From contig LBRL01000001.1 of the NCBI GenBank assembly GCA_000991405.1, forward strand, positions 625,841 to 689,840: DNA of 64,000 nucleotides, given 5' to 3'. A model generated the notes under the pieces. It was not told where the DNA came from and made no database searches. It worked only from the letters and a program-made list of their open reading frames with translations. Shown piece after piece: positions 159 through 46,100 of this stretch. The position numbers were made by a program, and so were the translations under genes. Origin of the DNA: Candidatus Nomurabacteria bacterium GW2011_GWD2_36_14 (lineage in GTDB: Bacteria; Patescibacteriota; Minisyncoccia; Phycocordibacterales; UBA9973). Numbering within the stretch: the stretch's first letter is position 1; every line of letters starts with the position of its first letter.

Positions 159-279
159 TGAAGTATGATAAAATAACAACGGCACACAAGATTTATAATT
201 TAAGCCCAGAAAGGGGTAACAGAAAATTTTGTGTGCCAAAACGCTTAAATTATTCTGTTATCCCTTTCTGGTTTCTGCC

Positions 280-1878: not shown

Positions 1879-1948
1879 CCTTCGAACCTACTTTTACCAT
1901 TAAAAAATAAGGGTAAAATGTAGTTTCTGGGCGAATATTCTAATCGTG

Positions 1949-2021
1949 TCCTCTCGGTAGGAATCGAACCTACGACCATCTCCTTAAAAGGGAGCTGCTC
2001 TACCAACTGAGCTACGAGAGG
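1949..2021 (-). tRNA. tRNA-Lys, anticodon TTT
   Basis: The reverse complement folds as a cloverleaf with acceptor CCTCTCG/CGAGAGG, D-arm GCTCAGTTGGTAGAGC, anticodon loop CTTTTAA, T-arm GTAGGTTCGATTCCTAC and discriminator A. Confidence 0.85.
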
Positions 2022-12969: not shown

Positions 12970-13008
12970 AATAATAAAAGCCAGATTTATCTGGCTTTTA
13001 TTATTGTT
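12970..13008. terminator. Terminator hairpin downstream of tRNA-Arg (bidirectional)
   Basis: AATAATAAAAGCCAGA-TTTAT-CTGGCTTTTATTATT. It lies between the tRNA and the convergent gene ending at 13010. Confidence 0.6.
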
Positions 13009-15933: not shown

Positions 15934-15989
15934 TGGTATATTTTAACATAAATAAGGTGAGAACATGAGTATATGTTTCGAACCTTACA

Positions 15990-16128
15990 TTAATGCGGTG
16001 AGACCGTGATTACACTTTTCGAATCTTACAGATTCTGTACACCTTTCGCGTAATTTTAAATATTAATTTAAAATTACAAGCTCAAGGTTTTCTCATCTCA
16101 CACATGAGCAAAGCAGTTTGCTCACTCG
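15990..16128 (-). repeat. tRNA-linked ~150-nt conserved element, copy A (downstream of tRNA-Ser on the minus strand)
   Basis: Its reverse complement aligns with 23634..23780. A 30-nt stretch (CGCGAAAGGTGTACAGAATCTGTAAGATTC) is identical. The 8-bp hairpin TGAGCAAA/TTTGCTCA corresponds to GTGAGACA/TGTCTCAC in copy B, with compensatory changes. Confidence 0.5.
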
Positions 16129-16170
16129 CCCGCAAAAAGAAAAACCCTATTTGGGTTTTCTTTTTTTTGC

Positions 16171-16256
16171 GGAAGCGGTGAGATTCGAACTCACGAGGAG
16201 CTTTCACCCCTAACAGTTTTCAAGACTGTCTCGTTAGACCACTCCGACACGCTTCC
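16171..16256 (-). tRNA. tRNA-Ser, anticodon TGA (type II with long variable arm)
   Basis: The reverse complement gives acceptor GGAAGCG, anticodon stem ACAGT/ACTGT with loop CTTGAAA, a long variable arm, T-arm GTGAGTTCGAATCTCAC and discriminator G. Confidence 0.85.
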
Positions 16257-16266
16257 GAGTATTACA

Positions 16267-16782
16267 CTACCTTATTTTCATTTTTTTTTCAAGTATTGTT
16301 TTCATCCAACTTTTTTCTAAAAGATGCTCTTCGTAATGGCAATTTGGACAAATTATTTCCAAGTTTTCAGTGCTATTATCTGACCTCTTTCTGTTTTTAT
16401 GATGAACTTGTAATATTTCATATTTATTGTAACCACAGCGTTCACAATTTTTTCCTCTTTCTTCTAATAATCTTAATTTTAGAATTCTCAATGTTCTCGC
16501 TTTATCTTTAGGTCTTCCGATTTTATATTTTATTCCCGTTCTATATTTATTTGAACAACTTCTGCTACAAGTTTTTTTATTTAAACCAGCCAAAATTAAT
16601 TTACCACAAACAACACAAGGACTTTCTTTTCTACAAGAGAGTCCATAACAATTCATACTACAAAAGACCTTTCCTTTGCTCTTATCTATTTCAAAAGGTC
16701 TTCTATAAATAGGGGATTTGCAGATTGTACATTTGGTATTAGGATTTCTTTTATACTCAGCCACTAATCCAGTATACCACAA
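16267..16782 (-). CDS. HNH endonuclease (stand-alone, Cys-rich)
   Basis: CERCGY...LQVHHKNR...NLEIICPNCH HNH motif plus several N-terminal CxxC pairs. It lies immediately upstream of tRNA-Ser on the same strand. Confidence 0.7.
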   Translation of the reverse strand: MWYTGLVAEYKRNPNTKCTICKSPIYRRPFEIDKSKGKVFCSMNCYGLSCRKESPCVVCGKLILAGLNKKTCSRSCSNKYRTGIKYKIGRPKDKARTLRILKLRLLEERGKNCERCGYNKYEILQVHHKNRKRSDNSTENLEIICPNCHYEEHLLEKSWMKTILEKKMKIR

Positions 16783-16790
16783 TAAATTCT

Positions 16791-16816
16791 AAAAACAGAC
16801 CACTTGGTCTGTTTTT
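16791..16816. terminator. Bidirectional terminator hairpin
   Basis: AAAAACAGACCA-CTTG-GTCTGTTTTT between convergent minus-strand genes. Confidence 0.6.
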
Positions 16817-16820
16817 AGAA

Positions 16821-17048
16821 TTATATCTTAGTCTTAAATACTCTGAAGAAATCTTTGGGTGTTCTTTTGGCGATGTAGAAGATATAGAATATATCTAGTA
16901 TTGCAAAAGTGTTTAATACCAAGAGAGCTATGAACCAACGTTTGTGTCCATTGTGTGATGCTGTCCACAAAGAATAGCCTTTCCATGGCAATACCCATAA
17001 AACTGCTAATACTATTAACTTGGGATCCATTTGTAAGAATTGTTCCAT
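16821..17048 (-). CDS. Small membrane protein (PLDc_N-like two-TM domain, hypothetical)
   Basis: 75 aa, two TM helices, W/K/Y-rich pattern LWVLPWKGYSLW...IFYIFYIAKR. Confidence 0.4.
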   Translation of the reverse strand: MEQFLQMDPKLIVLAVLWVLPWKGYSLWTASHNGHKRWFIALLVLNTFAILDIFYIFYIAKRTPKDFFRVFKTKI

Positions 17049-17101
17049 GAGTATATTTTATCAAGAATACCATTTTACTGCAATTGTGGTAATCTATATG
17101 T

Positions 17102-17524
17102 ATGAGACATTTAGGTATTGATTATGGTTCAAAGAGGGTTGGAGTAGCTATCTCTGACGATGAGGGGAATATTGCCTTCCCTTATAAAATTGTCCCAAAC
17201 AATATGGAACTTCTGGATACTATCCACAATATTTGTGGGACCGAGGAAGTTGGGGCTATTGTACTAGGAGAGTCACATGATTTGAGTGGCAAGCCCAACA
17301 AGATAATGGGAAGTATAGAAGAATTTAAGAGAAATATTGAAGCTGAGCTCGAACTACCAGTTTACTTCCAGAAAGAATTCATGACGACAGTAGAGGCAAG
17401 AGGAAGGGGAGGTAAGGAAATAAATAATGCAAAGAAAGTAGGTATGGGTAAACAAGTCGGAGCTGATGCCTCTGCCGCAGCACTAATACTGCAGAGGTAT
17501 TTAGACAAGAAGAACCAGAAATAA
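17102..17524 (+). CDS. ruvX: Holliday junction resolvase-like RNase RuvX/YqgF
   Basis: MRHLGIDYGSKRVGVAISD N-terminus (catalytic Asp) and RNase H-like fold length. The trailing region carries an AACGGCCGTT palindrome. Confidence 0.85.
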   Translation: MRHLGIDYGSKRVGVAISDDEGNIAFPYKIVPNNMELLDTIHNICGTEEVGAIVLGESHDLSGKPNKIMGSIEEFKRNIEAELELPVYFQKEFMTTVEARGRGGKEINNAKKVGMGKQVGADASAAALILQRYLDKKNQK

Positions 17525-17614
17525 TTAATAAAATTCACATGCAACACTTAGTAACGGCCGTTTGTATCTGTTACAAATAAAAACAACATCTTTCCTTTTG
17601 AGATTGATGCTGTT

Positions 17615-18118
17615 TCAGAAGATATTCTTCAAAAATCCCCATAATGAGAATCCAGTTAATACGATAATATTCCAATAAATACTTTTTACAATTATATTTA
17701 GTAAAAAATAATAAATTACATTTTTTCCACTAAATCCATTGTACATATGGAATCCATCTCTCATGTAAAGGACACCTAATCCTGGGTTTTTAAAAGAAAG
17801 TAAAAAAATCAATTTCTTCCTATTGTTTTCTGATTTCTTTACTATAAACTTTATAAGCTTATTCCACTCCTCAATCTTATGGTGATTGAATTGAGCTTCT
17901 TTTAGAGATTCCATCATTATGCAGTCAGTTTTATATTTATCATATAATCTTACTGTTATAACGCCTTTGATAATATAAATTGCAGTAATTATTATAATAC
18001 TTTTTATGAATCCCAATTCAAATATTATAATAGGGGTCAAAATATCATCTATAGATTCCTTAATACTTAAATTAATAAGGAAAATAGAGCTAAATCTAAG
18101 GACTTTTCTTTTTTCCAT
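17615..18118 (-). CDS. Hypothetical membrane protein
   Basis: 167 aa, several TM segments, no recognised motif. Confidence 0.4.
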   Translation of the reverse strand: MEKRKVLRFSSIFLINLSIKESIDDILTPIIIFELGFIKSIIIITAIYIIKGVITVRLYDKYKTDCIMMESLKEAQFNHHKIEEWNKLIKFIVKKSENNRKKLIFLLSFKNPGLGVLYMRDGFHMYNGFSGKNVIYYFLLNIIVKSIYWNIIVLTGFSLWGFLKNIF

Positions 18119-18202
18119 TATTAAGGTTTTAGAGTTTCGGTTTTAGTCTAGCACAAATAGAATATTTTGCATCAACAGGTTTTTGAAGTATAGTGTATAT
18201 AT

Positions 18203-18556
18203 ATGGAATATGTATCATACGAAGAATTTAAGAAAATGGATATAAGATTAGGGACTATACGCGAAGTAGAGCCTGTGCCAGAGACGGACAAGCTTTTGAA
18301 ATGCCTTATTGATTTTAATGAACAAGATGAAGAGGGGAATAAGAAGTTAAGGCAGATTATTTCTGGAATTCATGAATTTTACCCTGAGTATGAAAAATTA
18401 ATTGGTAAGCAAGTACTGTATATAGTGAACTTAGAGCCAAGAAAGATAAAAGGATTTGAGAGTAATGGAATGCTAATGGCTGTGGATGGGCTCGATGGCA
18501 AGCCAGTGTTCCTAGTGCCAGAAGTACCTGTGGGAGTAGGAAGTAAGGTTCGATAA
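18203..18556 (+). CDS. tRNA-binding domain protein (CsaA/Trbp111/EMAP-II-like OB fold)
   Basis: DIRLGTIREVEPVPETDKLLKCLIDFNE...GKQVLYIVNLEPRKIKGFESNGMLMAV. Confidence 0.75.
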   Translation: MEYVSYEEFKKMDIRLGTIREVEPVPETDKLLKCLIDFNEQDEEGNKKLRQIISGIHEFYPEYEKLIGKQVLYIVNLEPRKIKGFESNGMLMAVDGLDGKPVFLVPEVPVGVGSKVR

Positions 18557-18578
18557 TTATTAGAATATTTTTCTCCTT

Positions 18579-18629
18579 AAGGCCTTGCCTTGGGAGCACT
18601 AAAGGCAAGGCCTTTCCCCGAAAAATATG
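18579..18629. repeat. Palindromic ~50-nt intergenic element, copy 2 of 2 (X/Y element)
   Basis: AAGGccTTGCCTTGGGagcaCTAAAGGCAAggCCTTtcCCCGAAAAAT. The stem is 13 bp, and the gcc/ggc to aa/aa change relative to copy 1 preserves the stem. It abuts the ATG of the dedA-like gene at 18627. Confidence 0.45.
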
Positions 18630-19223
18630 CTTGATCCAATATTTTTAATAGAGACGGTAGGACTTATAGGAATTGTATTTATAATCTTTGCTGAGACGGG
18701 GCTCTTCTTTGGATTCTTTTTCCCCGGAGATTCCCTGCTGTTTACTGCGGGACTTCTAGCATCTCAAGGAATTTTCGATATTTACTCTCTTATAATCCTT
18801 TGCATACTTGGAGCGATACTAGGGGATAGTGTAGGATACTGGTCAGGAAAAAAGTATGGAAGAAAGCTCTTTGAGCGAGATGCGGGCTTCTTCTTCAAAA
18901 AGAAAAGAATATATGACGCAGAAGAATTCTATAAGAAGCATGGAAAGTATACAATTATCATTGCACGCTTCGTACCTATCATTCGTACTTTTGCTCCTAT
19001 TGTGGCAGGCATTGGGAAAATGCATTACTCTACTTTCATATCTTACAATATTATCGGCGGAATATTCTGGGTACTGTCTATAACCCTCTTGGGATATATT
19101 TTCGGTGGGATGATTACGAATCCGGATACATACATAATACCTATTGCCCTCCTCATAATCTTCATTTCTGTCATACCAATAATAATAAAAATTATTAAAA
19201 ATAAACTTGCAACTAAGAAATAA
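18627..19223 (+). CDS. DedA-family membrane protein
   Basis: FFPGDSLLFTAGLLASQG...GYWSGKKYGRKLFER...ARFVPIIRTFAPIVAGIGKMHY, the canonical DedA/VTT core. Confidence 0.85.
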   Translation: MLDPIFLIETVGLIGIVFIIFAETGLFFGFFFPGDSLLFTAGLLASQGIFDIYSLIILCILGAILGDSVGYWSGKKYGRKLFERDAGFFFKKKRIYDAEEFYKKHGKYTIIIARFVPIIRTFAPIVAGIGKMHYSTFISYNIIGGIFWVLSITLLGYIFGGMITNPDTYIIPIALLIIFISVIPIIIKIIKNKLATKK

Positions 19224-19248
19224 TTTTTTCTCATAAACTGTTTACTAC

Positions 19249-20901
19249 ATGAGAAATCGGGAGTATACTAGTAAAATAATGAAGCAATTATACAATCGTA
19301 ACTTTCCAACTCCTTCATACTTGGCGATGAATTCCTTTGCGATTGATATTTCTGATCAGTCTATAAAATACGGAGAACTACTGGCGACGCCACTGGGTCT
19401 TCGACTTGGGCGTTTCGGTAAAGAGAAGATACCTGCTGGGGTCGTAGTGTCAGGCAAGATTGAAAACGAAGAAAGTCTTGTCGGTATATTAAAAGATTTG
19501 AAAAAGAAAGAGAATCTCAAATTTGTCCGTGTATCGCTTCCTGAAGAGCAGATGTACTTGTTTACACTTTCCTTGCCTAAGGCCAACGACAAAGACTTGC
19601 GAGATATGATTCTACTTCAGATAGAAGAGCACATACCACTGAAGGCGATGGATACTATATTTGAATATGACACTATTTCAACTTCACCTACTAATATCTT
19701 GGTAGAAGTTTCTGCTATTGCCAGCTCGACAGCCGAAGGGTACTTGTCGGCTTTTGATAAGGCAGGGCTATCAGTACTATCCTTTGAACTTGAGGCACAA
19801 GCTATAGCTAGAGCTGTGATACCGACAGATGACAAAGAACCTACAATGATAGTAGACTTCGGAGATACAAGGACAGGAGTTTCTATAGTGCATGATGGCA
19901 AAGTATTCTTCACCACGACGCTTGATATGGGAGGAATTAATCTGACCAACATGATAGCCAAGAACTTCTCTCTATCTTTCGATAAAGCTGAAGAAATGAA
20001 GCGTTCGTATGGACTAGATGGGATTTCAAATATTGAAGACATCTTCCCAGTTATCCTAAATGGAATTTCAGTCTTGAGAGATGAGTTGAACAAGCAGTAC
20101 CAATACTGGAAGAATCACGACAACTACGGCATATCTCATGATGAGATAACCAAGATAATTCTCTGCGGAGGAGACTCGAACCTAACTGGACTATCTGACT
20201 ACTTAGAAGCTAGTATGAAAATAAAAGTAGAGCATGCCAATGCTTGGGTAAATATTTCTGATATGAAGACGTCGGTTCCTAGTATGTCCTTCCAAGAGTC
20301 CTTGGGGTATGCGACAGTCTTGGGGCTTGCTTTGGGAGGGTTCTCTTATGTATCGAATCCTGTTGTCAACGTATTGCCAGAGGATTACAAGATCGCACTA
20401 AAAAAAGAATATTGGAAAAGATTTGTAATTACTGTCCTACTTTTCTGTTCGGCCTTATTTATAATATTTACACTTTTGTTGCTACCATCTTACCTACTAT
20501 CTGCTTCCAAGCAACAAATATCTGAAAGTAAGCTCGTAGAATTCAACGAAATTAACAAAGACATAACCAGCTTTGATATGGATACAACTATCTCTGATAT
20601 TAATACTAAATTAGAAATATTGTCATCGGCAAATGGAGGTCACTCTGTATATGAAGATATCCTCACCGCGATACTTGCTAGTAGACCCAAAGGGGTTACT
20701 TTCAATCAGATAGTATTTAACCAGAAGAAGGACAAAAAATTGTCAGTCGATATCCACGGTAAAGCTCTCGATCGAGCTACACTACGTAACTTCAAAGCAG
20801 TTCTAGATAGTAATCCTAAAATCGCGACGGTGACTCTACCCATATCTGACTTCTTAGAAAAGACGAATTTGAACTTTACCATTTCACTTATCATGAAATA
20901 A
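19249..20901 (+). CDS. Type IV pilus assembly PilM (actin-like ATPase) fused to a PilN-like transmembrane C-terminal domain
   Basis: PilM-like N-terminal region (SFAIDISDQSIKYGEL ... CGGDSNLTGLSDYL) followed by a TM helix (VITVLLFCSALFIIFTLLLL) and a periplasmic PilN-like tail. The true start may be an internal Met at 19279 or 19327. Confidence 0.65.
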   Translation: MRNREYTSKIMKQLYNRNFPTPSYLAMNSFAIDISDQSIKYGELLATPLGLRLGRFGKEKIPAGVVVSGKIENEESLVGILKDLKKKENLKFVRVSLPEEQMYLFTLSLPKANDKDLRDMILLQIEEHIPLKAMDTIFEYDTISTSPTNILVEVSAIASSTAEGYLSAFDKAGLSVLSFELEAQAIARAVIPTDDKEPTMIVDFGDTRTGVSIVHDGKVFFTTTLDMGGINLTNMIAKNFSLSFDKAEEMKRSYGLDGISNIEDIFPVILNGISVLRDELNKQYQYWKNHDNYGISHDEITKIILCGGDSNLTGLSDYLEASMKIKVEHANAWVNISDMKTSVPSMSFQESLGYATVLGLALGGFSYVSNPVVNVLPEDYKIALKKEYWKRFVITVLLFCSALFIIFTLLLLPSYLLSASKQQISESKLVEFNEINKDITSFDMDTTISDINTKLEILSSANGGHSVYEDILTAILASRPKGVTFNQIVFNQKKDKKLSVDIHGKALDRATLRNFKAVLDSNPKIATVTLPISDFLEKTNLNFTISLIMK

Positions 20902-20910
20902 ATTTAATAT

Positions 20911-21492
20911 ATGAAAAAAAGTAATACAAACTTAATACTTATCATATCCGTCCTGCTCTTTATAATCTCTGTGGGGTTGTTTGTATACATATATAGAGTT
21001 ATCGAAAACAAGAACAGGCATACCTCGGCTGTCATGGCGACTCTCAATAATAAAATAGCAGAGAAAGAAAATATAAATGTTCTAAATAAAAAGATGGCGG
21101 AGCTAGGAGATGTGCAGAAAAGGATAGGAAGCTATCTGGTGGATACTTCGCAGATTGATACATTTGTAGGATATCTAGAGGAGATGGGGGCAGACAACAA
21201 TATAGACTTATCGGTCAAAAGTGTAGAAGTTCCTAAAAATGAAAAGAATAAAATCTCCTTATCTATAGACATAAGAGGAAGCTTTGAAAATATTCTGAAA
21301 GGGATATCCTTGCTAGAAAATGCTCCATACAATATAAGCGTAACATCTTTGTTCTTAAATAAAGATATGACAGAGAATGAATCTGACCAGAACATTTTCT
21401 TAGAGACTACTCCAGCTAAAACGAAAGAAGTCTTTACTCCTGCGAAGTCTGTATGGCAAGCCAACTTATCATTTAATGTGTTAAGTTTATAA
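20911..21492 (+). CDS. PilO-like pilus assembly protein (single TM, coiled coil)
   Basis: N-terminal TM helix, a coiled-coil segment and a periplasmic domain. It sits directly downstream of the pilM/N gene. Confidence 0.45.
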   Translation: MKKSNTNLILIISVLLFIISVGLFVYIYRVIENKNRHTSAVMATLNNKIAEKENINVLNKKMAELGDVQKRIGSYLVDTSQIDTFVGYLEEMGADNNIDLSVKSVEVPKNEKNKISLSIDIRGSFENILKGISLLENAPYNISVTSLFLNKDMTENESDQNIFLETTPAKTKEVFTPAKSVWQANLSFNVLSL

Positions 21493-21499
21493 AATCCAT

Positions 21500-21817
21500 A
21501 TGAAAACTTTTTTAACAAAAATTAAAGACATGGGAAAATCTTTCCATAACTTCTGCAAGATTAATCCTTATAAGCAATGGATGACACTTCTGTATACATT
21601 CTTCGTAATAGTATTTATCTGCATTTTGTCCAGTTTTTACCTTCTGTATGAAATAAAAAATGATAAGATCTTTCAAGTGAAAGTGGAGCAGGTAGAGAAA
21701 AAGAGCTTGCTAAAAGAAGATCTTCTAAAAAAGACGATAAACTTGTACGACACGAAGTTCAAGAAAGAAACCGATTTAATAAGCAACCCCCCAGTATTTA
21801 AAGACCCGAGTTTATAG
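21500..21817 (+). CDS. Hypothetical small membrane protein, possibly PilP-like
   Basis: 105 aa with one TM helix. Third gene of the pilM/N/O-like cluster. Confidence 0.35.
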   Translation: MKTFLTKIKDMGKSFHNFCKINPYKQWMTLLYTFFVIVFICILSSFYLLYEIKNDKIFQVKVEQVEKKSLLKEDLLKKTINLYDTKFKKETDLISNPPVFKDPSL

Positions 21818-21887
21818 GAAACTTGAATTTTAATGGAATTATGCTAGTATAAAAGCGTGTAAAGATTTCACGATCGTTGAAGAATAT

Positions 21888-21960
21888 GCGCGCTTAGCTC
21901 AGTTGGTAGAGCAACTCATTTACACTGAGAAGGTCGGGGGTTCAAGTCCCTCAGCGCGCA
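21888..21960 (+). tRNA. tRNA-Val, anticodon TAC
   Basis: Acceptor GCGCGCT/AGCGCGC, D-arm GCTCAGTTGGTAGAGC, anticodon loop TTTACAC, T-arm GGGGGTTCAAGTCCCTC. Confidence 0.85.
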
Positions 21961-21982
21961 CAAAGCTCATAAGGCCCCTTCT

Positions 21983-22053
21983 GCCCCTGTAGTTCAATGG
22001 ATAGAACTGCGGACTTCTAAGCCGTCGATGTAGGTTCGATTCCTGCCAGGGGC
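21983..22053 (+). tRNA. tRNA-Arg, anticodon TCT
   Basis: Acceptor GCCCCTG/CAGGGGC, D-arm GTTCAATGGATAGAAC, anticodon loop CTTCTAA (one A-G mismatch closes the stem), T-arm GTAGGTTCGATTCCTGC. Confidence 0.8.
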
Positions 22054-22055
22054 AC

Positions 22056-22844
22056 ATGAAATTAAAAATCCTTTTCGAAGACAAGAATATCTTGGTTATA
22101 GACAAACCGGCGGGTATTGCTGTGCATGCAGATGCTCGAACTAAGAAAAATGAAAAAACTATTGCTGATCTAATACTTGATTACGATAAATCTATTGCCA
22201 AAGTAGGGGAGCCTATGACCATAGAGTACAAGGGTGAGGAGATTAAAATAAAACGCCCCGGCATAGTGCATCGTCTAGATAGAGAGACTTCCGGAGTCTT
22301 GCTTGTGGCCAAGAATCAGAAAACATTTCTGTTCCTCAAGGAACAATTCCAGAATCATACTATCGAGAAAGTATATAGAGCATTTGTATATGGGCATGTG
22401 TCAGATCCAAAGGCTTCGCTTGCTACTGGCAAGAAGGGAATTATAGATGTTCCAATAGGACGCTCGCCGATAGATATACGTATGTGGACAGCTGGACGGG
22501 GAGCTCGCCCACCTCTACGAGACGCAGTGACAGGATACAAAGTTCTAGAAAGATTTTCGGATAATGATACAAAGGGTCTTAATCAAGACAATAAATTCTC
22601 GTATATAGAAGCATATCCAAAGACTGGCAGAACTCACCAGATCCGAGTACATATGAGGTACATCAACCACCCTGTCGTTTCAGATCCACTTTATAGAGGT
22701 AATCAAGAACTAGCCCTTGGAATGAAGAGATTGGCTCTGCATTCCTACTCTATAACTTTCCGAATGCCAAATGGTGATAAGAAAACCATAGAGTCTCCAC
22801 TACCAGCCGACTTTACAAAGGTAATAAAAGAGTATTTACAATAA
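22056..22844 (+). CDS. RluA-family pseudouridine synthase
   Basis: HRLDRETSGVLLVAKN catalytic-Asp motif and downstream RluA core. No N-terminal S4 domain. The ORF begins immediately after tRNA-Arg. Confidence 0.8.
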   Translation: MKLKILFEDKNILVIDKPAGIAVHADARTKKNEKTIADLILDYDKSIAKVGEPMTIEYKGEEIKIKRPGIVHRLDRETSGVLLVAKNQKTFLFLKEQFQNHTIEKVYRAFVYGHVSDPKASLATGKKGIIDVPIGRSPIDIRMWTAGRGARPPLRDAVTGYKVLERFSDNDTKGLNQDNKFSYIEAYPKTGRTHQIRVHMRYINHPVVSDPLYRGNQELALGMKRLALHSYSITFRMPNGDKKTIESPLPADFTKVIKEYLQ

Positions 22845-22848
22845 TCTT

Positions 22849-22986
22849 GTCCCCACACCTACTTTTTAATTATTGTGCTTTTGTGACTTTTTCTCTCAAA
22901 ATGGTGTTTCTTATATATAAAAATATACAATATTATCATTAAAGTAATGGCACAATTTAAAAGCCATAAAAAAGTAGGTGTGGGGG
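22849..22986. repeat. Long nested inverted repeat flanking a ~75-nt AT-rich core
   Basis: GTCCCCACACCTACTTTTTAATTATTGTGC ... GCACAATTTAAAAGCCATAAAAAAGTAGGTGTGGGGGC. The outer arm is 19 bp and perfect; the inner arm is 7 bp. It lies between the RluA gene and rplS. Confidence 0.45.
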
Positions 22987-23023
22987 CTTGCTCTAAATAG
23001 GTATATATGATAAAGTAGAACCC

Positions 23024-23431
23024 ATGGAAATAACGAAAAAACAATTTACTCCTGTTGAGCAGAACGACCGAAAAAACCTTGATTTTAAGGCTGGTGACAC
23101 TGTCCGCGTCTGGAATAAAATAATGGAAAAAGGAAAAGTTCGTCTTCAGGCTTTTGAAGGACTAGTTCTCTCACGTAAGCATGGTACTGAAAGTGGAGCC
23201 ACATTTACAATACGAAAAGTAGCTAGTGGAGTTGGAGTAGAACGTATCTTTCCTTTATATTCTCCAAATATTGATAAGATTGAAATCCTAAGAAAGTCTA
23301 AAACTCGCCGTAACAAGCTTTACTACATCCGAACAAAGGCGGTTAAGGAAGTGAAGAAGAGATTAAAGAGTATTACAATATCAAGAGAAGACAAGGCAGA
23401 AGATGTTGTAGAAGAAAAATCAGCAGAATAA
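23024..23431 (+). CDS. rplS: 50S ribosomal protein L19
   Basis: DFKAGDTVRVWNKIMEKGKVRLQAFEGLVLSRKHGTESGATFTIRKVASGVGVERIFPLYSP. C-terminal extension. Confidence 0.85.
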   Translation: MEITKKQFTPVEQNDRKNLDFKAGDTVRVWNKIMEKGKVRLQAFEGLVLSRKHGTESGATFTIRKVASGVGVERIFPLYSPNIDKIEILRKSKTRRNKLYYIRTKAVKEVKKRLKSITISREDKAEDVVEEKSAE

Positions 23432-23458
23432 AAACAGCCCTGAGGGCTGTTTTTTTGA
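23431..23458 (+). terminator. Rho-independent terminator of rplS
   Basis: AAAACAGCCC-TGA-GGGCTGTTTTTTT. Confidence 0.7.
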
Positions 23459-23508
23459 TTGAAAAAATCTTAATAATTCGTTATACTCGAGATGTTTGAA
23501 GTATTAAT

Positions 23509-23592
23509 GCACGGGTGGCGAAACTGGTAGACGCACTACCTTGAGGTGGTAGCGCCCGCAAGGGCATGGAAGTTCAAATCTTCTCTCGTGCA
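23509..23592 (+). tRNA. tRNA-Leu, anticodon GAG (type II)
   Basis: Acceptor GCACGGG/CTCGTGC, anticodon stem CTACC/GGTAG with loop TTGAGGT, long variable arm, T-arm GGAAGTTCAAATCTTCT. Confidence 0.85.
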
Positions 23593-23641
23593 CAATAATA
23601 AAAACCTTCTTTCTGAAGGTTTTTATTATTGTGCACGAGAG
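23583..23641 (+). terminator. Extended 27-bp hairpin formed by the tRNA-Leu 3' acceptor strand and its downstream inverted copy
   Basis: CTCTCGTGCACAATAATAAAAACCTTC-TTTC-TGAAGGTTTTTATTATTGTGCACGAGAG. The first 11 nt are the 3' end of the tRNA. Confidence 0.6.
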
Positions 23642-23780
23642 TGAGACAACTGCTTGTCTCACGTAGAGGAGTTGAAGACCTTGAGCTTGGATTTTGAAAT
23701 GTTAATTTCAAAATACGCGAAAGGTGTACAGAATCTGTAAGATTCAAGAAGCGTACTCGCGGTCATCTCTGTTGCGCAAA
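23634..23780 (+). repeat. tRNA-linked ~150-nt conserved element, copy B (downstream of tRNA-Leu)
   Basis: Aligns with the reverse complement of 15990..16128 and partially with 28059..28076. It contains the hairpins GTGAGACA-actgct-TGTCTCAC and GAATCT-GTA-AGATTC. Confidence 0.5.
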
Positions 23781-23868
23781 CTAAAAATTATGAGGCAAGA
23801 CTATTTTATAATTTACTTGCTTATCCAAATGCTTCCGTAACTAAAATTAATTGGATAAAATAAAGTTT

Positions 23869-24729
23869 TTATCCAATTTTTAAAAGAACAATACCAACAA
23901 AACTCAAAAATGCGAGTAAGATTTTCTTTTTTGTTAATTTTTCTTTGAAGAAAATTAAACCAAAAATTCCAGCGATAAAAGTATACGCGGGGTGGATTGC
24001 ATAAACTCCCGAAAGTGGACCAAAAGAAAGGGCTTTGAAAATTGCGTAACCGCCCGCGACAGAAAACAAACCTATAAGAACCGAACCTTTCCAGTATTTG
24101 TCTAAATGAGTTATATTTACAAATTTTTCCTTTTCAAAAATGTATGCAATTAAAAGACCAAAAAGTGCGGCACCTAGATATTGCCAGAGCATAAAGTGAG
24201 AAACAGAATCATTAACTGCACCCAACTTCTGAATATATTTTGACGCAGTCGATGAAACTATAATTCCCAGAGAAAGTAAAATAGTTTTTTGATCGAGTGG
24301 GAATGAGCCAGTTTTTCTTGTGAAAAGAAAAACTGAAAGTAAAATAATTGCAATACCAGCTGTCTGTATAATAGAAACATGTTCAGAGAGAACAGTTATG
24401 CCGATTAAAACAGTAACAACACTTCCAATTGATGATGTAACTGGATACGCTGAATTTGTCTCAACATTTTGAAGTAAAATCTTTTGTAAAACCATATTAA
24501 TAGCAAAGAATCCACCCCAAACTATTGCATACCAAGATATGGTTGATAATCCTGATAAATAACTTTGACCAAACAATACAAGAGCTATTAACACAAAAAA
24601 TGCTGAAAAAAGATTTGTCCAAAACGTAGAAAAGAAACTACTATAACCCTTGAATGAGGGCATTTTGTACAAAGACATTGATATACCCAGCAATATTGTT
24701 GAGGCAATTGAATATGAAAGCCAGTTCAT
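23869..24729 (-). CDS. DMT-superfamily (EamA-like) transporter
   Basis: 286 aa, about 10 TM helices in two repeated halves. Assignment is from topology only. Confidence 0.5.
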   Translation of the reverse strand: MNWLSYSIASTILLGISMSLYKMPSFKGYSSFFSTFWTNLFSAFFVLIALVLFGQSYLSGLSTISWYAIVWGGFFAINMVLQKILLQNVETNSAYPVTSSIGSVVTVLIGITVLSEHVSIIQTAGIAIILLSVFLFTRKTGSFPLDQKTILLSLGIIVSSTASKYIQKLGAVNDSVSHFMLWQYLGAALFGLLIAYIFEKEKFVNITHLDKYWKGSVLIGLFSVAGGYAIFKALSFGPLSGVYAIHPAYTFIAGIFGLIFFKEKLTKKKILLAFLSFVGIVLLKIG

Positions 24730-24885
24730 AATATTTACTTTAACATAAATTCGTTTTTCATTCTATTCTTTAGGGAGCAAAATTTATGTGTGAAATGGAG
24801 AGTAGGTTGAGCACAATAATAAGATATGTATCTAGATCTTGCCTCACGATTTTTAAATATCAGCTTTTAATATATAATAGATGAT

Positions 24886-25458
24886 ATGATAACATTTTTA
24901 TTTAGTTTATTTACGTGGATTGCTTTCTTGGTTCTTTTGATAGTATTTTTTTTATTACTTTTATGGATGTGGAGCAGTATAAAAGCAAAAGTTCCATTTA
25001 TAGGAGTTCCTACTAAAACTTTAAAAGATATAGAGAAAGCTCTTAATATAAACGAAGATAGTGTTGTCTACGATTTAGGTTGTGGGGATGGAAGAGTTCT
25101 TTTTTATTTATACAAGAATAATCCTAAGGCTAAATATATAGGAATTGAAAATAGCCAATTCCCCCTCCTTGTTTTCAATGTTAGGAATTGGTTTTTCAAG
25201 AGAAAAAACAAATCGAATATTTCAATCATTGGAAAAGACTTTTTTGATGTAAACTTGTCAGATGCTACTCATATATTTACTTATCTTTACCCAAATGTAA
25301 TGGATGACTTACTTGCAAAGTTTGATAAAGAACTTAAGAGGGGAACTCGCCTTGTATCAGCATCCTTCCACTTTACAACAAAACGTGAAGTAGAAGTCCT
25401 TGATCTAAAAAGAGGTAAATGGGAGCTTGCAAGGGAGATTTATGTGTATGAATTCTAA
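24886..25458 (+). CDS. Class I SAM-dependent methyltransferase with N-terminal TM anchor
   Basis: VVYDLGCGDGRVLFYL SAM-binding motif I. TM helix at residues 5-30. Confidence 0.65.
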   Translation: MITFLFSLFTWIAFLVLLIVFFLLLLWMWSSIKAKVPFIGVPTKTLKDIEKALNINEDSVVYDLGCGDGRVLFYLYKNNPKAKYIGIENSQFPLLVFNVRNWFFKRKNKSNISIIGKDFFDVNLSDATHIFTYLYPNVMDDLLAKFDKELKRGTRLVSASFHFTTKREVEVLDLKRGKWELAREIYVYEF

Positions 25459-25523
25459 ATAAGTTAACATTTTCTGAGATTTTATTTTACTAAAACTTCT
25501 CTAAGAGGTATAATAAACCTAGT

Positions 25524-27656
25524 ATGACTACTGGCGAACTAATAGACTACATAAAGTCACAGCTTAATAAAAATATTCCTAAATATTTAATTATTTCTCG
25601 CCTCATAGAAGTTGGGTGGAGGATGGAAGATATAGAGGAAGGCTTTTCAAATATAGAACCCAAAGTAGCTCTGCCAGTTGCAGAACCTATAAAACCAGTA
25701 GAACCACAAGTCTTCGAGCCAGTAATTCAGCCAGTAGAACTTGAAAAACCAACAGTGGAGCCAGTAGTAGAACCTTTAAAGCAAGAAGAGCCCAAAAAGA
25801 TTTGGACTCCTATTGTAGTAGAACCCAAGACCGTAGATGTAAGTAAGCCATCGGCTATAGAACTATACAATCTAGAAATCGAACAAGCAGAAAAGCCAGT
25901 AGTAGAAGTAGCTTCTATGGAAGAAGCACCAAAAACAATTACCCACAAATTTGAAGTATCGAATATAGAGATCCCTAAAGAAGAAGCGCCTGTAGAAGCA
26001 CTTGTAGAAATGCCAGCAGAAGAACTTATACCTACAATCAACAAGGAAGTTAAACCTTCATCGGAATATTTAGACTTACAGAGAGATAGTCAGGCGATAC
26101 TAGATCCATATATTGACAATGCTCCTGTTGTAAAGGCCAACATGTCAGATGTTGTACCTAGGACGGCGATGATATCTTCGTATTCTCAAGATATTTTGTC
26201 TGCAAATACCACAGAAGAAAGCCCAAAGCCTGTAATACAGAAGAAGTCTATTATAAAAATATTGATTGTTATTCTCATCTGTTCGTTCGTTGGAGGAATG
26301 GTCTTTGCTTTTGTAAGTGGTAGCATCAAATTACCTGGATTCAAGAAAAGCTTTTCTATTGTGAAGAAAGATCCTAGAAGTATAATTCTAAATACTCCAA
26401 ACAATATCTCAAAATTAAAATCATATAAAATAGAAAGTGAAGTGACCGTGTCCTCTCCATCGTTTTCAAGTATTACGACAGGACTTGCTAGTGGGGAAGC
26501 CGTTACTTCAAAAGACAAAGAATCCATTGCTATTATCGTTAAAGGAATGGCCAATCATGTAAACAACAAACTAGTCTTTGATAATCTTGTAACACTTAAA
26601 AGTTCTATATTAGAAAATGATATTGTAAGTGATTGGAAGTACGACGGATCTACTTTCTACGTGTCGGTTCCTGACTTAAACTTAGTAATAGGCAAGGATG
26701 CACCTGCCCCTGCCCTAGTACAACTAACTCCAGATCAGCTTGGAACTATGGTGCCACAATTCTCTCCAGAGATTGCAGATATGATAAAGAAAGTAGACAT
26801 ATACAACGTTATGTCGGAAGGAGTGCCCTTATATGTGAGGACGGAAGCCACTTCTATAGTTAAAGAATTTATCAATAGTACAGAGTATACAGGTAAAGGG
26901 AAGGAAGATATCCATGGCGTTAGCACCTACCATTATGAACTGACCGCAGACCGTCCTTCTACTAAAAAGCTTGTGGGCTCCTTGGTAGATCTTCTGACAA
27001 TGAAGTTGCCAGCAGACCAGAGACAGAATCTAGATGAGGCTATCGGGGCCTCTTCTATAACTGCTTTCGAGGTATGGATTGGAGAGAATGATGATAATTT
27101 GTACCAGATCAAATTTACTTTGAACATGCCTCTATCAAGAGTCTTGGGATTAAATGATAGTGGTATAGGAGATAATGAAGTTAAACTAGAATGGAGAACT
27201 ACTTACTTTGACATAGATGTGGAGAACAAGATTGATATGCCGAGTGATGCAATAGATATGAAAACTTTTATAAATAATGTAAAAGATACAAAAATAAAAA
27301 GCATGGCTTCTGCCTTCCTTGCACAAGCGACAGTCTTTAAAAATGCAGTAGGCTCGTATGGATCTAGGTCTAATCCAACAGGAAGTTGTACGAACCCAAA
27401 TCCTAGCTCACTCTTCTCTCCAAAGGGGCATAAAAAGAGTGCCGATACAGCCATTGCTTCTATCTCGGCTTCGATGAACTCACTACTGAGTGATACCAAT
27501 GGACTAGGGTCTTGCTACTCTACTTCTACTGCTTGGGCGATAGCTCTACCTTTGTTCAGCAATCCGGATCCAGCAAATCCAAGTTACTATTGTACTGATA
27601 GCAGTGGCAATACGACTACTCTTACAAACGCTATAACAGGTCCAATCTGTAAATAA
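25524..27656 (+). CDS. Large membrane-anchored surface protein with Pro/Glu/Val-rich repeat linker (hypothetical)
   Basis: 710 aa. N-terminal cytoplasmic domain, (PVEP/EPVV)n linker, one TM helix (ILIVILICSFVGGMVFAFV), a large extracytoplasmic domain and a Cys-containing C-terminus. Confidence 0.55.
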   Translation: MTTGELIDYIKSQLNKNIPKYLIISRLIEVGWRMEDIEEGFSNIEPKVALPVAEPIKPVEPQVFEPVIQPVELEKPTVEPVVEPLKQEEPKKIWTPIVVEPKTVDVSKPSAIELYNLEIEQAEKPVVEVASMEEAPKTITHKFEVSNIEIPKEEAPVEALVEMPAEELIPTINKEVKPSSEYLDLQRDSQAILDPYIDNAPVVKANMSDVVPRTAMISSYSQDILSANTTEESPKPVIQKKSIIKILIVILICSFVGGMVFAFVSGSIKLPGFKKSFSIVKKDPRSIILNTPNNISKLKSYKIESEVTVSSPSFSSITTGLASGEAVTSKDKESIAIIVKGMANHVNNKLVFDNLVTLKSSILENDIVSDWKYDGSTFYVSVPDLNLVIGKDAPAPALVQLTPDQLGTMVPQFSPEIADMIKKVDIYNVMSEGVPLYVRTEATSIVKEFINSTEYTGKGKEDIHGVSTYHYELTADRPSTKKLVGSLVDLLTMKLPADQRQNLDEAIGASSITAFEVWIGENDDNLYQIKFTLNMPLSRVLGLNDSGIGDNEVKLEWRTTYFDIDVENKIDMPSDAIDMKTFINNVKDTKIKSMASAFLAQATVFKNAVGSYGSRSNPTGSCTNPNPSSLFSPKGHKKSADTAIASISASMNSLLSDTNGLGSCYSTSTAWAIALPLFSNPDPANPSYYCTDSSGNTTTLTNAITGPICK

Positions 27657-27772
27657 CATAAATAATCTCCACATTCACCTCCCGCCTAGATTTTTTAGGC
27701 ATTTTCTGGTATAACTGGGTAGTTACCACAGTATTTCATGGTGGTAAATAATAGTGTTTGTGTATATGACAT

Positions 27773-27846
27773 GGTGCCTATAGTGTAATGGTTAGCACTA
27801 GAGTTTGTGGAACTCTCAGTCTGGGTTCAAATCCCAGTAGGCACCC
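27773..27846 (+). tRNA. tRNA-His, anticodon GTG
   Basis: Acceptor GGTGCCT/AGGCACC, D-arm AGTGTAATGGTTAGCACT, anticodon stem AGAGT/ACTCT with loop TTGTGGA, T-arm CTGGGTTCAAATCCCAG, discriminator C. G-1 is not encoded. Confidence 0.85.
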
Positions 27847-28058
27847 CAAAAATAAAGAAGTAAATATATTAATATTTACGGATTATATTTTGGCGTGCCT
27901 ACTGGGATTTGTAAACCGCAGGCGGTATACAAGCAAGTTACTACTTGGCTTGTCGCCGAGGTGGGGTCGAGAGTACTTAGTCTACGGAAGGTGTAATCAT
28001 CTGAGTAGACTTAGTAACTCGTGACAATTCCCAGTAGTGTTATATTATGTAATAGTCA

Positions 28059-28089
28059 AAAAGCGTACTCGCGGTCCCAGTAGTACCCC
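28059..28089 (+). repeat. Partial copy C of the tRNA-linked element, overlapping a direct repeat of the tRNA-His 3' end
   Basis: AAAAGCGTACTCGCGGTC matches 23743..23760. GTCCCAGTAGTACCCC resembles the tRNA-His 3' end ATCCCAGTAGGCACCCC. Confidence 0.4.
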
Positions 28090-28132
28090 GTATTTAGTGT
28101 TCTCGTTTAGACATGTTATACTTTTATAATCT

Positions 28133-45941: not shown

Positions 45942-45984
45942 AAAAAATTGTTTTGGTTAGTTAGTTTTTTAAAATTTAAACCTA

Positions 45985-46100
45985 TGTATTTGGAAGTGAG
46001 GTGTGATTCCTCTACTGTGCCGCAACGGTAATGCTCGTAAGAGATAAGTCCGATCTTAATACAACGGTGTTTCCCGAGCAGGAGAAATCTACTATTATTT
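45985..46100 (+). promoter_or_regulatory. Putative cobalamin (B12) riboswitch
   Basis: tGGAAgtgaGGTGTGATTCCtctaCTGtGCCGCAACGGTAATG parallels the E. coli btuB and Rfam cobalamin core (GGGAA..GGUG.AA.UCC..CUG..CGCAGCGGUAAGG). A downstream GAGCAGGAGA is B12-box-like. It is followed by an intrinsic terminator. Confidence 0.55.

Follow-up and report, generated by a model that had tools for sequence, protein, structure and literature searches.

Primer-binding sites of retroviruses, long terminal repeat (LTR) retrotransposons and plant retrozymes are perfect complements, about 17-20 nt long, of the 3' end of one tRNA and reach into its T-loop, while the attachment (att) sites of tRNA-targeting elements and folded att sites, i.e., integron attC and the attP of the CTX phage that is served by XerCD, duplicate a tRNA 3' segment from the T-loop on. 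Small RNAs beside or fused with a tRNA-type helix are represented by mascRNA of MALAT1, plant dicistronic tRNA-snoRNA (small nucleolar RNA) transcripts, viral tRNA-like structures and the tRNA-like domain of transfer-messenger RNA (tmRNA); conserved scaffolds with short variable flanks that match both strands of one DNA target by the IS110 bridge RNA and the TIGR tigRNA; and short, non-coding, hairpin-forming, multicopy, intergenic and patchily distributed repeats by miniature inverted-repeat transposable elements (MITEs), repetitive extragenic palindromes (REPs) and bacterial interspersed mosaic elements (BIMEs). Here we describe an element of about 150 nt that is inserted directly behind tRNA genes of Patescibacteria, invariably in the tRNA orientation, and of which three copies lie in a stretch of 64,000 nt from Candidatus Nomurabacteria bacterium GW2011_GWD2_36_14 (contig LBRL01000001.1, positions 625,841 to 689,840; hereafter the window). 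The copies belong to a widespread family of structured elements that is bound to the 3' ends of tRNAs, takes the template of its antisense and sense arms from the neighbouring tRNA and is polymorphic among relatives, and this much is firmly established. Each of the known systems shares one or two features of the element and fails on others.

The left arm of the element resembles a primer-binding site, and where CCA stands behind its right arm, the complement of that arm on the other strand would, by sequence analogy, exactly complement mature tRNA nt 60-76. Unlike a primer-binding site, the left arm complements the gene trailer (CAA…) and not CCA, lies in cis behind the tRNA gene and is interrupted by a hairpin, and the element has no linked reverse transcriptase, LTR or polypurine tract. 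Polymorphic occupancy, tandem arrays at one anchor and a hairpin stem that reproduces a double-stranded target in strict Watson-Crick form recall att and attC sites; however, the arms of the element vary with the target and its centre is conserved, which is the opposite of attC, it has no linked recombinase and no cargo save a terminator hairpin, and it uses tRNAs with 26 anticodons. Its predicted acceptor/T-stem minihelix, with CCA at some element 3' ends, would fit a tRNA-like RNA, but the neighbouring tRNA supplies the sequence of this helix, which is often incomplete, the T-loop is paired and not free, a module replaces the T-loop, and the copies are multiple and polymorphic. In contrast to the segments of bridge RNA and tigRNA, those of the element are mutually complementary and correspond to the same target positions, the unit measures about 150 nt versus 36 nt, and no Tas, IS110 or other protein gene adjoins it; TIGR-Tas, which has been reported from Patescibacteria too, is a different system and was rejected as the identity of the element (PMC12045711). 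Unlike MITEs, REPs and BIMEs, finally, the element has no constant terminal repeats, takes its flanks from the target, is strictly linked and oriented to tRNA genes, and covaries across many genera.

The window is cellular DNA with a GC content of 35%, and its genes include those for ribosomal protein L19 and a pseudouridine synthase. Calls with ARAGORN and the Rfam tRNA model place copy A (15994-16133, minus strand) behind tRNA-Ser(tga) (16169-16256, minus strand; 56.7 bits with the Rfam model), copy B (23631-23779, plus strand) behind tRNA-Leu(gag) (23509-23593, plus strand), and copy C behind tRNA-His(gtg) (27774-27848, plus strand), which has an encoded CCA. A sequence-only reading of the window had proposed that A and B can be aligned, and in a three-way alignment they are collinear over about 140 nt, with C common only at the 3' end. 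The 30-mer core CGCGAAAGGTGTACAGAATCTGTAAGATTC that it had noticed is present at just two places of the window, 16021-16050 (minus strand) and 23716-23745 (plus strand), and had no match in 100 shuffles with up to three mismatches allowed. The hairpin GAATCT-GTA-AGATTC proved to be helix P3 of the family, and the upstream hairpin with stem changes, GTGAGACA/TGTCTCAC in B and TGAGCAAA/TTTGCTCA in A, its hairpin "hp". The order of tRNA, AT-flanked hairpin and element holds at all three loci. The supposed partial copy near tRNA-His does contain the 3' box AAAGCGTACTCGCGGTC at 28060-28076 with no mismatch (1 mismatch in B, 3 in A; 0.04 matches expected), but it is not simply a partial copy, being built mostly of a second module family. 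The earlier observation was thus real and understated, and it had missed that each element starts with the reverse complement of the 3' end of its own tRNA and ends with a direct copy of it.

In a scan of one genome per species with the pattern AAGGTGTA-N15-45-AAGYGTAMTCRCGGTC, at least 115 loci were found in at least 81 genomes, including the source genome, and all of them belong to Patescibacteria; these and all further counts of loci, genomes and anticodons are those among the matches listed and are lower bounds. Compared loci from related genomes carry the labels L004-L124 etc., which are not to be read as ribosomal proteins; the taxonomy labels of metagenome-assembled genomes (MAGs) are unreliable, and one pipeline labels many of them as Saccharibacteria. 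A covariance model, R1, was built on 74 distinct units, and with its rough E-values it recognizes the type-1 module of copy A at 15997-16101 (minus strand; 98 bits, E 5e-23) and of copy B at 23665-23769 (plus strand; 97.4 bits, E 7e-23).

The linkage to tRNAs, seen before at three loci, is general. A tRNA on the same strand stands just upstream of 97 of the 123 core matches listed, ending 67-333 nt before the match and mostly about 105-135 nt before it, while a tRNA on the opposite strand never occupies this position (0/123); 26 anticodons are represented, with matching arms in each. An antisense 12-mer of T-loop and T-stem, with up to two mismatches, follows 91 of 185 tRNAs and precedes 4 of 181. 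The tRNA genes next to elements mostly have no encoded CCA, and CAA comes after the discriminator in 53 of 84 and leads into the A-tract of the terminator. Several exceptions are explained by tRNAs that contain a group I intron (L035, L097) or are cut by the end of the locus (L028, L104), and a few solo copies with no tRNA remain, e.g., in L079. The introns lie inside the tRNA genes before the elements (L035, 4491-4730, minus strand; L097, 2021-2291, plus strand), the split tRNAs were missed by ARAGORN, and the arms there read CTACCCGCGGAGCA; L006, L033 and L071 share these arms and probably follow the same intron-containing tRNA. In four genomes (L010, L016, L041, L111), a conserved motif GGTTCGYGCAAAGGWTA..AAT.CATCAC replaces a recognisable tRNA ahead of the hairpin and element; judged by its sequence, it is either an RNA 3' end of another kind or a tRNA with an insertion in the T-loop.

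The linkage bears directly on the suggestion of the sequence-only reading that the element could be a MITE, and on the related ideas of a generic repeat, a plain long intrinsic terminator, or the 5' leader or riboswitch of a downstream gene. The element is indeed small, multicopy, intergenic, hairpin-rich and variably present, with several units per genome and both filled and empty orthologous sites, and co-oriented open reading frames (ORFs) follow A and C at a distance of about 45-60 nt. However, its orientation and position relative to tRNAs are strict, and it has no constant terminal inverted repeats, its ends following the adjacent tRNA. The expected target-site duplication of fixed length is missing as well: the direct repeat, which begins at tRNA position 60, runs for anything from about 6 to more than 22 nt. 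A plain terminator does not account for covariation in helices unrelated to termination, and a leader does not fit the convergent gene downstream of B or the absence of a recurrent downstream gene family, so we consider this group of explanations very improbable.

No Rfam 15 family matched the element when the whole window was searched at gathering thresholds, the only hits being tRNAs and an AdoCbl (B12) riboswitch aptamer at 45965-46096 (plus strand; 54.4 bits against a gathering score of 50); an E-value search of the three loci returned only sub-threshold chance matches, mostly on the long hairpin. Elsewhere, a LOOT RNA (RF03000) was noticed in the Nomurabacteria contig L102 (6973-7094, minus strand, 73.9 bits). 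Known self-cleaving ribozymes (hammerhead, twister, twister-sister, hatchet, pistol, hepatitis delta virus-like) gave no model match at E up to 10 in the three loci, and a hammerhead-like core was dismissed, for UCGAAGA resembles CUGANGA but the two essential first bases differ. The scan pattern had 0 matches in 2.9 million viral contigs, and BLAST of element B against phage and plasmid collections had none either. Full-text literature searches of incomplete coverage found no description of the element, and a 2026 preprint on intergenic features makes no mention of tRNAs. We therefore rate the family as undescribed and outside the known kinds, as far as this incomplete coverage of the literature allows.

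Read in the tRNA direction, the layout begins with the tRNA, a hairpin of A-tract, stem and T-tract, left arm a, AG, hp, GT and left arm b. Left arm a is the reverse complement of the discriminator and the acceptor 3' strand, and left arm b that of the T-stem 3' strand and the whole T-loop (CCGGGAATCGAA for TTCGATT, ATTCGAA for TTCGAAT, ATTTGAA for TTCAAAT). Then come helix P2, opened by RACCTT and closed by AAGGT around a variable tip, GTAC, helix P3 of 6 bp with a GTA loop, and (TT)CGAN, a sense copy of T-loop nt 54-59, which is followed by AAG, helix P4 (GYG-TAMT-CRC), GG, T60, the sense T-stem 3' strand and a variable acceptor 3' stretch. The tRNA-derived content is hence an antisense copy of nt 54-73 with trailer, split at 65/66 by hp, and a sense copy, split at 59/60 by P4, of which nt 54-59 lie inside the module and nt 60-65 extend variably towards 73 or CCA. 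The module measures about 95 nt with P2, P3 and P4, or about 105 nt as a folded four-helix unit, and its junctions are near-invariant; hp has a fixed length of 22 or 25 nt, and 60 of its 61 distinct sequences form one hairpin with 6 bp or more.

The view that this is a structured element rather than neutral repeat DNA was borne out on the 74 distinct units. In the proposed structure, 92.9% of cells pair versus 76.8% in shuffles, sliding the partners lowers pairing to 27-49%, and 16 pairs changed on both sides, in 326 cells. Helices P3 and P4 covary independently of the tRNA (pair 76-84: CG 34, UA 18, AU 13, GC 7; pair 94-101: CG 58, UA 13), and the pair between N' (column 7) and the copy of N59 (column 90) covaries too (AU 37, UA 25, CG 5, GC 4). 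Minimum free energy folds of A and B alone give all helices of the model, with z-scores of -5.6 for A and -3.25 for B.

The arms follow the neighbouring tRNA. In a permutation test, the mean longest exact word shared with the own tRNA was 8.7 nt for the right arm and 10.7 nt for the left arm versus 4.0 and 6.3 nt, respectively, with other tRNAs. At positions where the tRNA pair is not Watson-Crick, the left arm is complementary to the 3' strand in 57 of 62 cases and identical to the 5' strand in 2, and it is therefore an antisense copy and not a duplicated tRNA 5' half. This refutes the idea of a degenerate tandem tRNA duplicate, a pseudogene with insertions, which the acceptor-like and T-stem-like strands in tRNA order and the T-loop copy might suggest; the T-loop beside the T-stem 5' strand is antisense, and neither ARAGORN nor Rfam matches a tRNA over the elements, which leaves this explanation with a negligible probability. 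Mismatches to the tRNA amount to 0.065-0.116 per nt in the left arm and 0.071 per nt in the T-stem part of the right arm, which is identical to the tRNA in 67 of 84 loci; where it differs, the left arm sides with the tRNA 20:2. In 34 of 84 elements the acceptor part of the right arm has no mismatch, and in 32 of 84 it has four or more in 8 nt, mostly owing to an abrupt loss of homology after 0-4 nt and in a few cases to 1-nt indels; gradual decay of the right arm is ruled out by this mismatch distribution. Together with the trailer and the hairpin behind it, the acceptor 3' strand and left arm a make up one long hairpin in every locus (68/68), with a median of 24 bp and at least 20 bp in 46 of them, and in the predicted read-through transcript of tRNA-Leu and B a 26-bp helix dominates and displaces the acceptor stem.

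Occupancy is polymorphic. Synteny was compared in six loci, using relatives whose ribosomal protein L19 is 89-93% identical, and gains and losses were assigned by parsimony without a tree. At tRNA-Leu(gag), only the lineage of the window has the element, and L120, L122, L123 and L124 have none; a gene for an EamA-family transporter (23869-24729, minus strand) between element B and a methyltransferase gene is absent at the syntenic site in L122, L123 and L124 and may have arrived together with element B. The spacer from tRNA-Val to tRNA-Arg is 12-21 nt long in five loci, and a type-2 module with matching arms occupies it in L120 and L123. The gene for tRNA-Arg(tct) adjoins the ATG of the next gene in four loci, whereas L120 has a 195-nt insert and L121 an element flanked by a 22-nt direct repeat (TCCTGCCGGGGGCACAATTATA). 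In the window, at 22055/22056, this tRNA stops one base ahead of the start codon (ATG) of the pseudouridine synthase gene, and the junction is kept in L122, L123 and L124. About 6 of 22 tRNAs are occupied in an unbiased syntenic set. Different tRNAs of one genome have P2 tips that resemble each other more (0.71, n=26) than do those at one anticodon in different genomes (0.59, n=169), and tandem arrays, arrays of mixed modules and truncated units occur.

Direct repeats of a tRNA 3' segment flanking an insert could be read as scars or att sites of ordinary integrative elements, i.e., prophages or integrative and conjugative elements (ICEs) with tyrosine or serine integrases. Such repeats from the T-loop onward are reportedly the classical signature of tRNA-gene integration, as Williams is said to have described in 2002. 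The sequence-only reading had also pointed to a serine recombinase and an HNH endonuclease, and both genes exist. The large serine recombinase (Resolvase, Recombinase and Zn ribbon domains; 229-1878, plus strand) ends 70 nt from the 3' end of tRNA-Lys (1948-2021, minus strand), and a similar recombinase beside a LAGLIDADG-like ORF overlaps tRNA-Leu in L121 (3648-5279). The tRNA-Lys, however, has neither a type-1 nor a type-2 module, only partial sense copies of its T-arm downstream (GTAGGTTCGAAGG, TTAGGTTCGAAGA), and from its sequence context the recombinase seems to be part of a separate mobile element, which would likewise target tRNAs. Directly upstream of tRNA-Ser lies an ORF of 171 aa (16267-16782, minus strand) that weakly matches HNH endonucleases and has no recurrent counterpart beside the elements of other genomes. 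When ORFs within 2 kb of 120 units were clustered, no gene family recurred, the commonest occurring in 8 of 81 genomes among the matches listed, and no recurrent partner gene of a retron, a diversity-generating retroelement (DGR) or another reverse-transcriptase-associated RNA, of TIGR-Tas, of the IS110 bridge RNA or of a TnpB/IscB omega RNA was found within these 2 kb; a partner may be encoded elsewhere. We regard the HNH gene and the serine recombinase as local coincidences and not as partners of the element. Of the att-like interpretation, the flanks taken from the tRNA 3' end and the polymorphic occupancy stand, but scars of large elements are highly improbable, given inserts of only 150-250 nt that are non-coding with a conserved structured core, the lack of a linked integrase, 26 anticodons with matching arms in each, and an inverted copy that is always present.

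In 77 of 84 elements, the tRNA-sense strand has a more stable fold than its complement (-55.2 vs -49.6 kcal/mol, p = 2e-14), and its predicted G-U pairs number 380 versus 168 on the complement; counting G-U against A-C in P2, P3, P4 and the arms gave no strand signal, nearly all pairs being Watson-Crick. The only promoter-like site near B is a sigma70-like promoter at 23459-23487, upstream of tRNA-Leu. Since this site lies upstream of the tRNA and the tRNA-sense strand folds better, co-transcription with the tRNA, already suggested by the sequence-only reading, would be the simplest model of expression. A convergent tRNA-like gene on the opposite strand that shares a bidirectional terminator is disfavoured by the strand folding and by the absence of a promoter-like site downstream of B. 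A terminator scan made a call after tRNA-Ser (A) and none after tRNA-Leu (B) or tRNA-His (C); a terminator would account for the first ~35 nt only and not for the module. CCA stands behind 9 of the 44 right arms that are intact to the discriminator, and behind 8 of the 40 whose tRNA gene encodes no CCA (p = 3e-8 relative to trinucleotide composition and 0.002 with a conservative null). This CCA would fit the 3' end of a tRNA-like RNA, and its complement on the other strand would complete a perfect match to nt 60-76 of the mature tRNA; because this opposite-strand reading fits as well, CCA alone leaves the strand unfixed.

The interpretation that we favour, if with somewhat less than even confidence, is that of a mobile, non-autonomous structured RNA element of tRNA trailers. 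It would be transcribed by read-through from the tRNA promoter, and its antisense arm would then have two alternative partners: either the 3' strand of the tRNA itself, which would lengthen the terminator into a hairpin of about 24 bp, or the sense copies of the element, which would close the module in a helix like the tRNA T-stem and, when complete, also reproduce the acceptor stem. The tRNA 3' end would serve both as the landing site and as the template of the arms, and mobilisation would have to come from a trans-acting machinery that recognises the conserved module.

Several points weigh against this interpretation. No enzyme, excised form or insertion intermediate was found, and we derived no single mechanism for four tRNA-derived segments interleaved with conserved parts; an RNase P leader, the attC analogy, P-nucleotide palindromes, snap-back priming from the terminator and a hammerhead-like core each account for some features, but all leave this interleaving unexplained. 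Deep conservation and compensatory changes, which also separate the probably orthologous tRNA-Arg(tct) copies of L120 and L121, would equally fit an RNA gene selected by the host. The similarity within genomes, calculated from only 26 pairs, could reflect gene conversion and not transposition, and empty sites could in principle be losses, although loss is unlikely at tRNA-Arg(tct) because the tRNA would not survive a deletion between the short repeats of L120. With the search pattern, 24 core positions are fixed, which makes their invariance partly circular, and the sample is biased. G-U pairs are rare in P3 and P4, so the strand call would rest mainly on hp, P2 and the folding energy, and a G+T-rich strand could inflate the energy difference; expression and the ends of the RNA are deduced from sequence.

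A host non-coding RNA gene on a tRNA-like chassis, e.g., a protein-binding scaffold, a sensor or a ribozyme, is the competing explanation that we take most seriously, even if it appears rather unlikely. Expressed from the tRNA promoter and cut out by the enzymes of tRNA processing, such an RNA could have acceptor/T-stem minihelix ends open to RNase P, RNase Z and the CCA-adding enzyme, with copy number and location free to vary and gene conversion keeping the copies alike. This would be consistent with the strong covariation and near-invariant junctions in at least 81 genomes, the compensatory changes between the tRNA-Arg(tct) copies mentioned above and between two tRNA-Glu copies of one genome (L012, L025), the closing T-stem copy that is perfect in 67 of 84 loci, the CCA present behind some complete right arms, the better fold of the tRNA-sense strand, and several unrelated module types that share the chassis. 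The minihelix is predicted in A and B, but its acceptor half is missing or abruptly truncated in about 38% of the elements (32/84), so that the full minihelix would often be absent. Moreover, the left arm tracks the tRNA (20:2) and not its supposed partner in the right arm, it is continuous with the terminator stem and leaves no single-stranded leader for RNase P, close relatives differ in the occupancy of a given tRNA, truncated copies such as C exist, and the strict Watson-Crick copying (57/62) exceeds what RNA pairing needs. The two interpretations, a mobile element and a host non-coding RNA, are not exclusive.

The same antisense arm could instead make the element a cis device for its own tRNA, clamping the 3' 20 nt in read-through transcripts and controlling maturation or yield, either by offering RNase III a long duplex or by switching, under the control of the module, from a tRNA-bound to a self-closed state and back. 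That the antisense arm is the best-kept tRNA-derived part and tracks the tRNA, not the right arm, that the long hairpin is present in every locus, that the predicted read-through fold unwinds the acceptor stem, and that one arm has two mutually exclusive partners, as in riboswitch expression platforms, all agree with a device of this type. Sister genomes, however, use the same tRNA without the element, which makes the effect dispensable, the second and third units of arrays have no tRNA of their own, and the tRNA folds before the antisense arm is transcribed; to our knowledge, there is no ligand or protein for such a switch. This explanation is thus quite improbable.

In a bolder form of the favoured interpretation, the mobile RNA would be nucleic-acid-guided and self-programming. 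Antisense and sense arms match both strands of the 3' end of the tRNA gene or, equivalently, would combine a primer-binding site with a CCA-bearing imitation of the 3' end of the mature tRNA. Guided by them, an enzyme in trans, perhaps a reverse transcriptase or recombinase encoded elsewhere in these reduced genomes, would copy the conserved module to tRNA genes, and the guides would be rewritten from each new target. This proposal is unlikely, and we give a similar weight to a tRNA-specific antisense clamp through which the cell controls tRNA maturation.

The three copies in the window illustrate the architecture in detail. The arms of copy A are templated on the last ~20 nt of tRNA-Ser, from the T-loop to the discriminator. 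Directly 3' of the tRNA is a terminator-like hairpin of A-tract, GC stem and T-tract (16134-16168, minus strand, terminator-like on both strands), which forms the tip of the long hairpin H1. Left arm a (GCGGGCGAG, 16125-16133, minus strand) is an approximate antisense copy of the acceptor 3' strand and discriminator according to the tRNA comparison and family statistics, and the predicted hp hairpin (TGAGCAAA-CTGC-TTTGCTCA, 16105-16124, minus strand) interrupts the antisense arm opposite the 65/66 junction of the tRNA. Within the module, whose covariation and minimum free energy helices agree with the model, left arm b (16090-16101) comprises the T-stem 5' strand and antisense T-loop, P2 (16041-16089) is followed by GTAC, P3 (16021-16035) by the sense T-loop copy, and P4 (16006-16015) by GGT and the sense T-stem 3' strand, all on the minus strand. 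The right arm (CTCACCGCA, 15994-16002, minus strand) is a sense copy of tRNA-Ser nt 61-69, and homology stops abruptly after nt 69. Behind it, comparison with variant units revealed a 5'-truncated second unit, GTAAGGTTCGAAACATATACTCATGTTC and TCACC (15956-15988, minus strand), made of the P3 3' strand, a P4-like hairpin and a further T-stem copy and not scored by R1.

Copy B starts behind an AT-rich palindrome, AATAATAAAAACCTT-CTTTCTG-AAGGTTTTTATTATT (23594-23630, plus strand), and a palindrome of this design also lies behind tRNA-Arg(gcg) at 12970-13006, a tRNA without an element. Its left arm a (GTGCACGAGAG, 23631-23641) corresponds without mismatch to the reverse complement of the final 11 nt of tRNA-Leu, and the hp hairpin predicted by folding is TGAGACAA-CTGC-TTGTCTCA (23642-23661). 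Left arm b (23665-23676), P2 (23677-23725), P3 (23731-23745) and P4 (23751-23760), the last followed by GGT and the T-stem copy, lead to the right arm (CATCTCTGTTGCGCAA, 23764-23779), a diverged sense copy of tRNA-Leu nt 61-73 with the trailer CAA; all these parts are on the plus strand.

Copy C is a composite of a type-2 module and a truncated type-1 end, all on the plus strand. Behind tRNA-His, an AT-rich hairpin spacer (27849-27893) precedes a left arm (CGTGCCTACTGGGATTTG, 27894-27911) that is contiguous, with no hp insertion, and contains a 17-nt exact reverse complement of the tRNA from T-loop to acceptor. The type-2 module, …ACCGCAGGCGG…GCCGAGGTGGGGTCGAGAG…GTAACTCGTGACAATT (27912-28029), has homologues in L098, L116 and L123 and represents a different family with the same flank logic as type 1: the homologues have the same kind of flanks and follow tRNA-His in L098, tRNA-Val in L123 and, in L116, a tRNA-His-like 3' end at which ARAGORN called no tRNA. 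A first right arm (CCCAGTAGTG, 28030-28039), a sense copy of tRNA-His nt 61-68, is followed by a 5'-truncated type-1 unit (28040-28075) with a degenerate P3 and then AAAAGCGTACTCGCGGT, i.e., P4 and the 3' box, and by a second right arm (CCCAGTAGTACCCCG, 28076-28090), a diverged sense copy of nt 61-76. Model R1 scored C with 24.4 bits (E 4e-4, 27984-28081), and the match is good from P3 onward only. A full-length type-1 unit stands at the equivalent position in L116, and the 3' fragment in C resembles that behind copy A.

The truncated units, i.e., copy C, 15956-15988, and those in L106 and L116, are anecdotal. We dropped 5' truncation as a signature of retroelements, for most 3' boxes without the middle box belong to a variant sub-family found with the model (AAAGTACC…CATG-TACT-CATG), in which the helices are kept, the sequence differs and AAAGTACC replaces AAGGTGTAC. 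Among core matches of 69 nt, type-1 units of L086, L101 and L116 carry a conserved 25-nt hairpin inside the P3 loop (…CTGCGATTCATCTAAATCGCCTACGGGGTAAG…). In L079-L083, L106 and L120, a recurrent motif, (TAA)CTYGTGRYCAC…ATGAATGCGAAGCATAC, stands behind the T-stem copy after the type-1 right arm and may be another module family or a type-2 fragment.

Patescibacteria, also known as the candidate phyla radiation (CPR), comprise a large part of bacterial diversity; their genomes are tiny, and hardly any experiments have been done on them. In one clade, about one tRNA gene in three bears the element. The element accounts for many unannotated tRNA-adjacent intergenic regions in their MAGs. If it is mobile, it would represent a new way of targeting tRNA genes, with reprogrammable arms derived from the target, no linked protein and, by implication, an as yet undescribed machinery for its copying. 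As a host RNA, it would be a widespread bacterial mimic of the tRNA 3' end combined with an antisense, with possible roles in tRNA maturation and quality control. Either way, it provides a new covariance model for genome annotation and a testable system.

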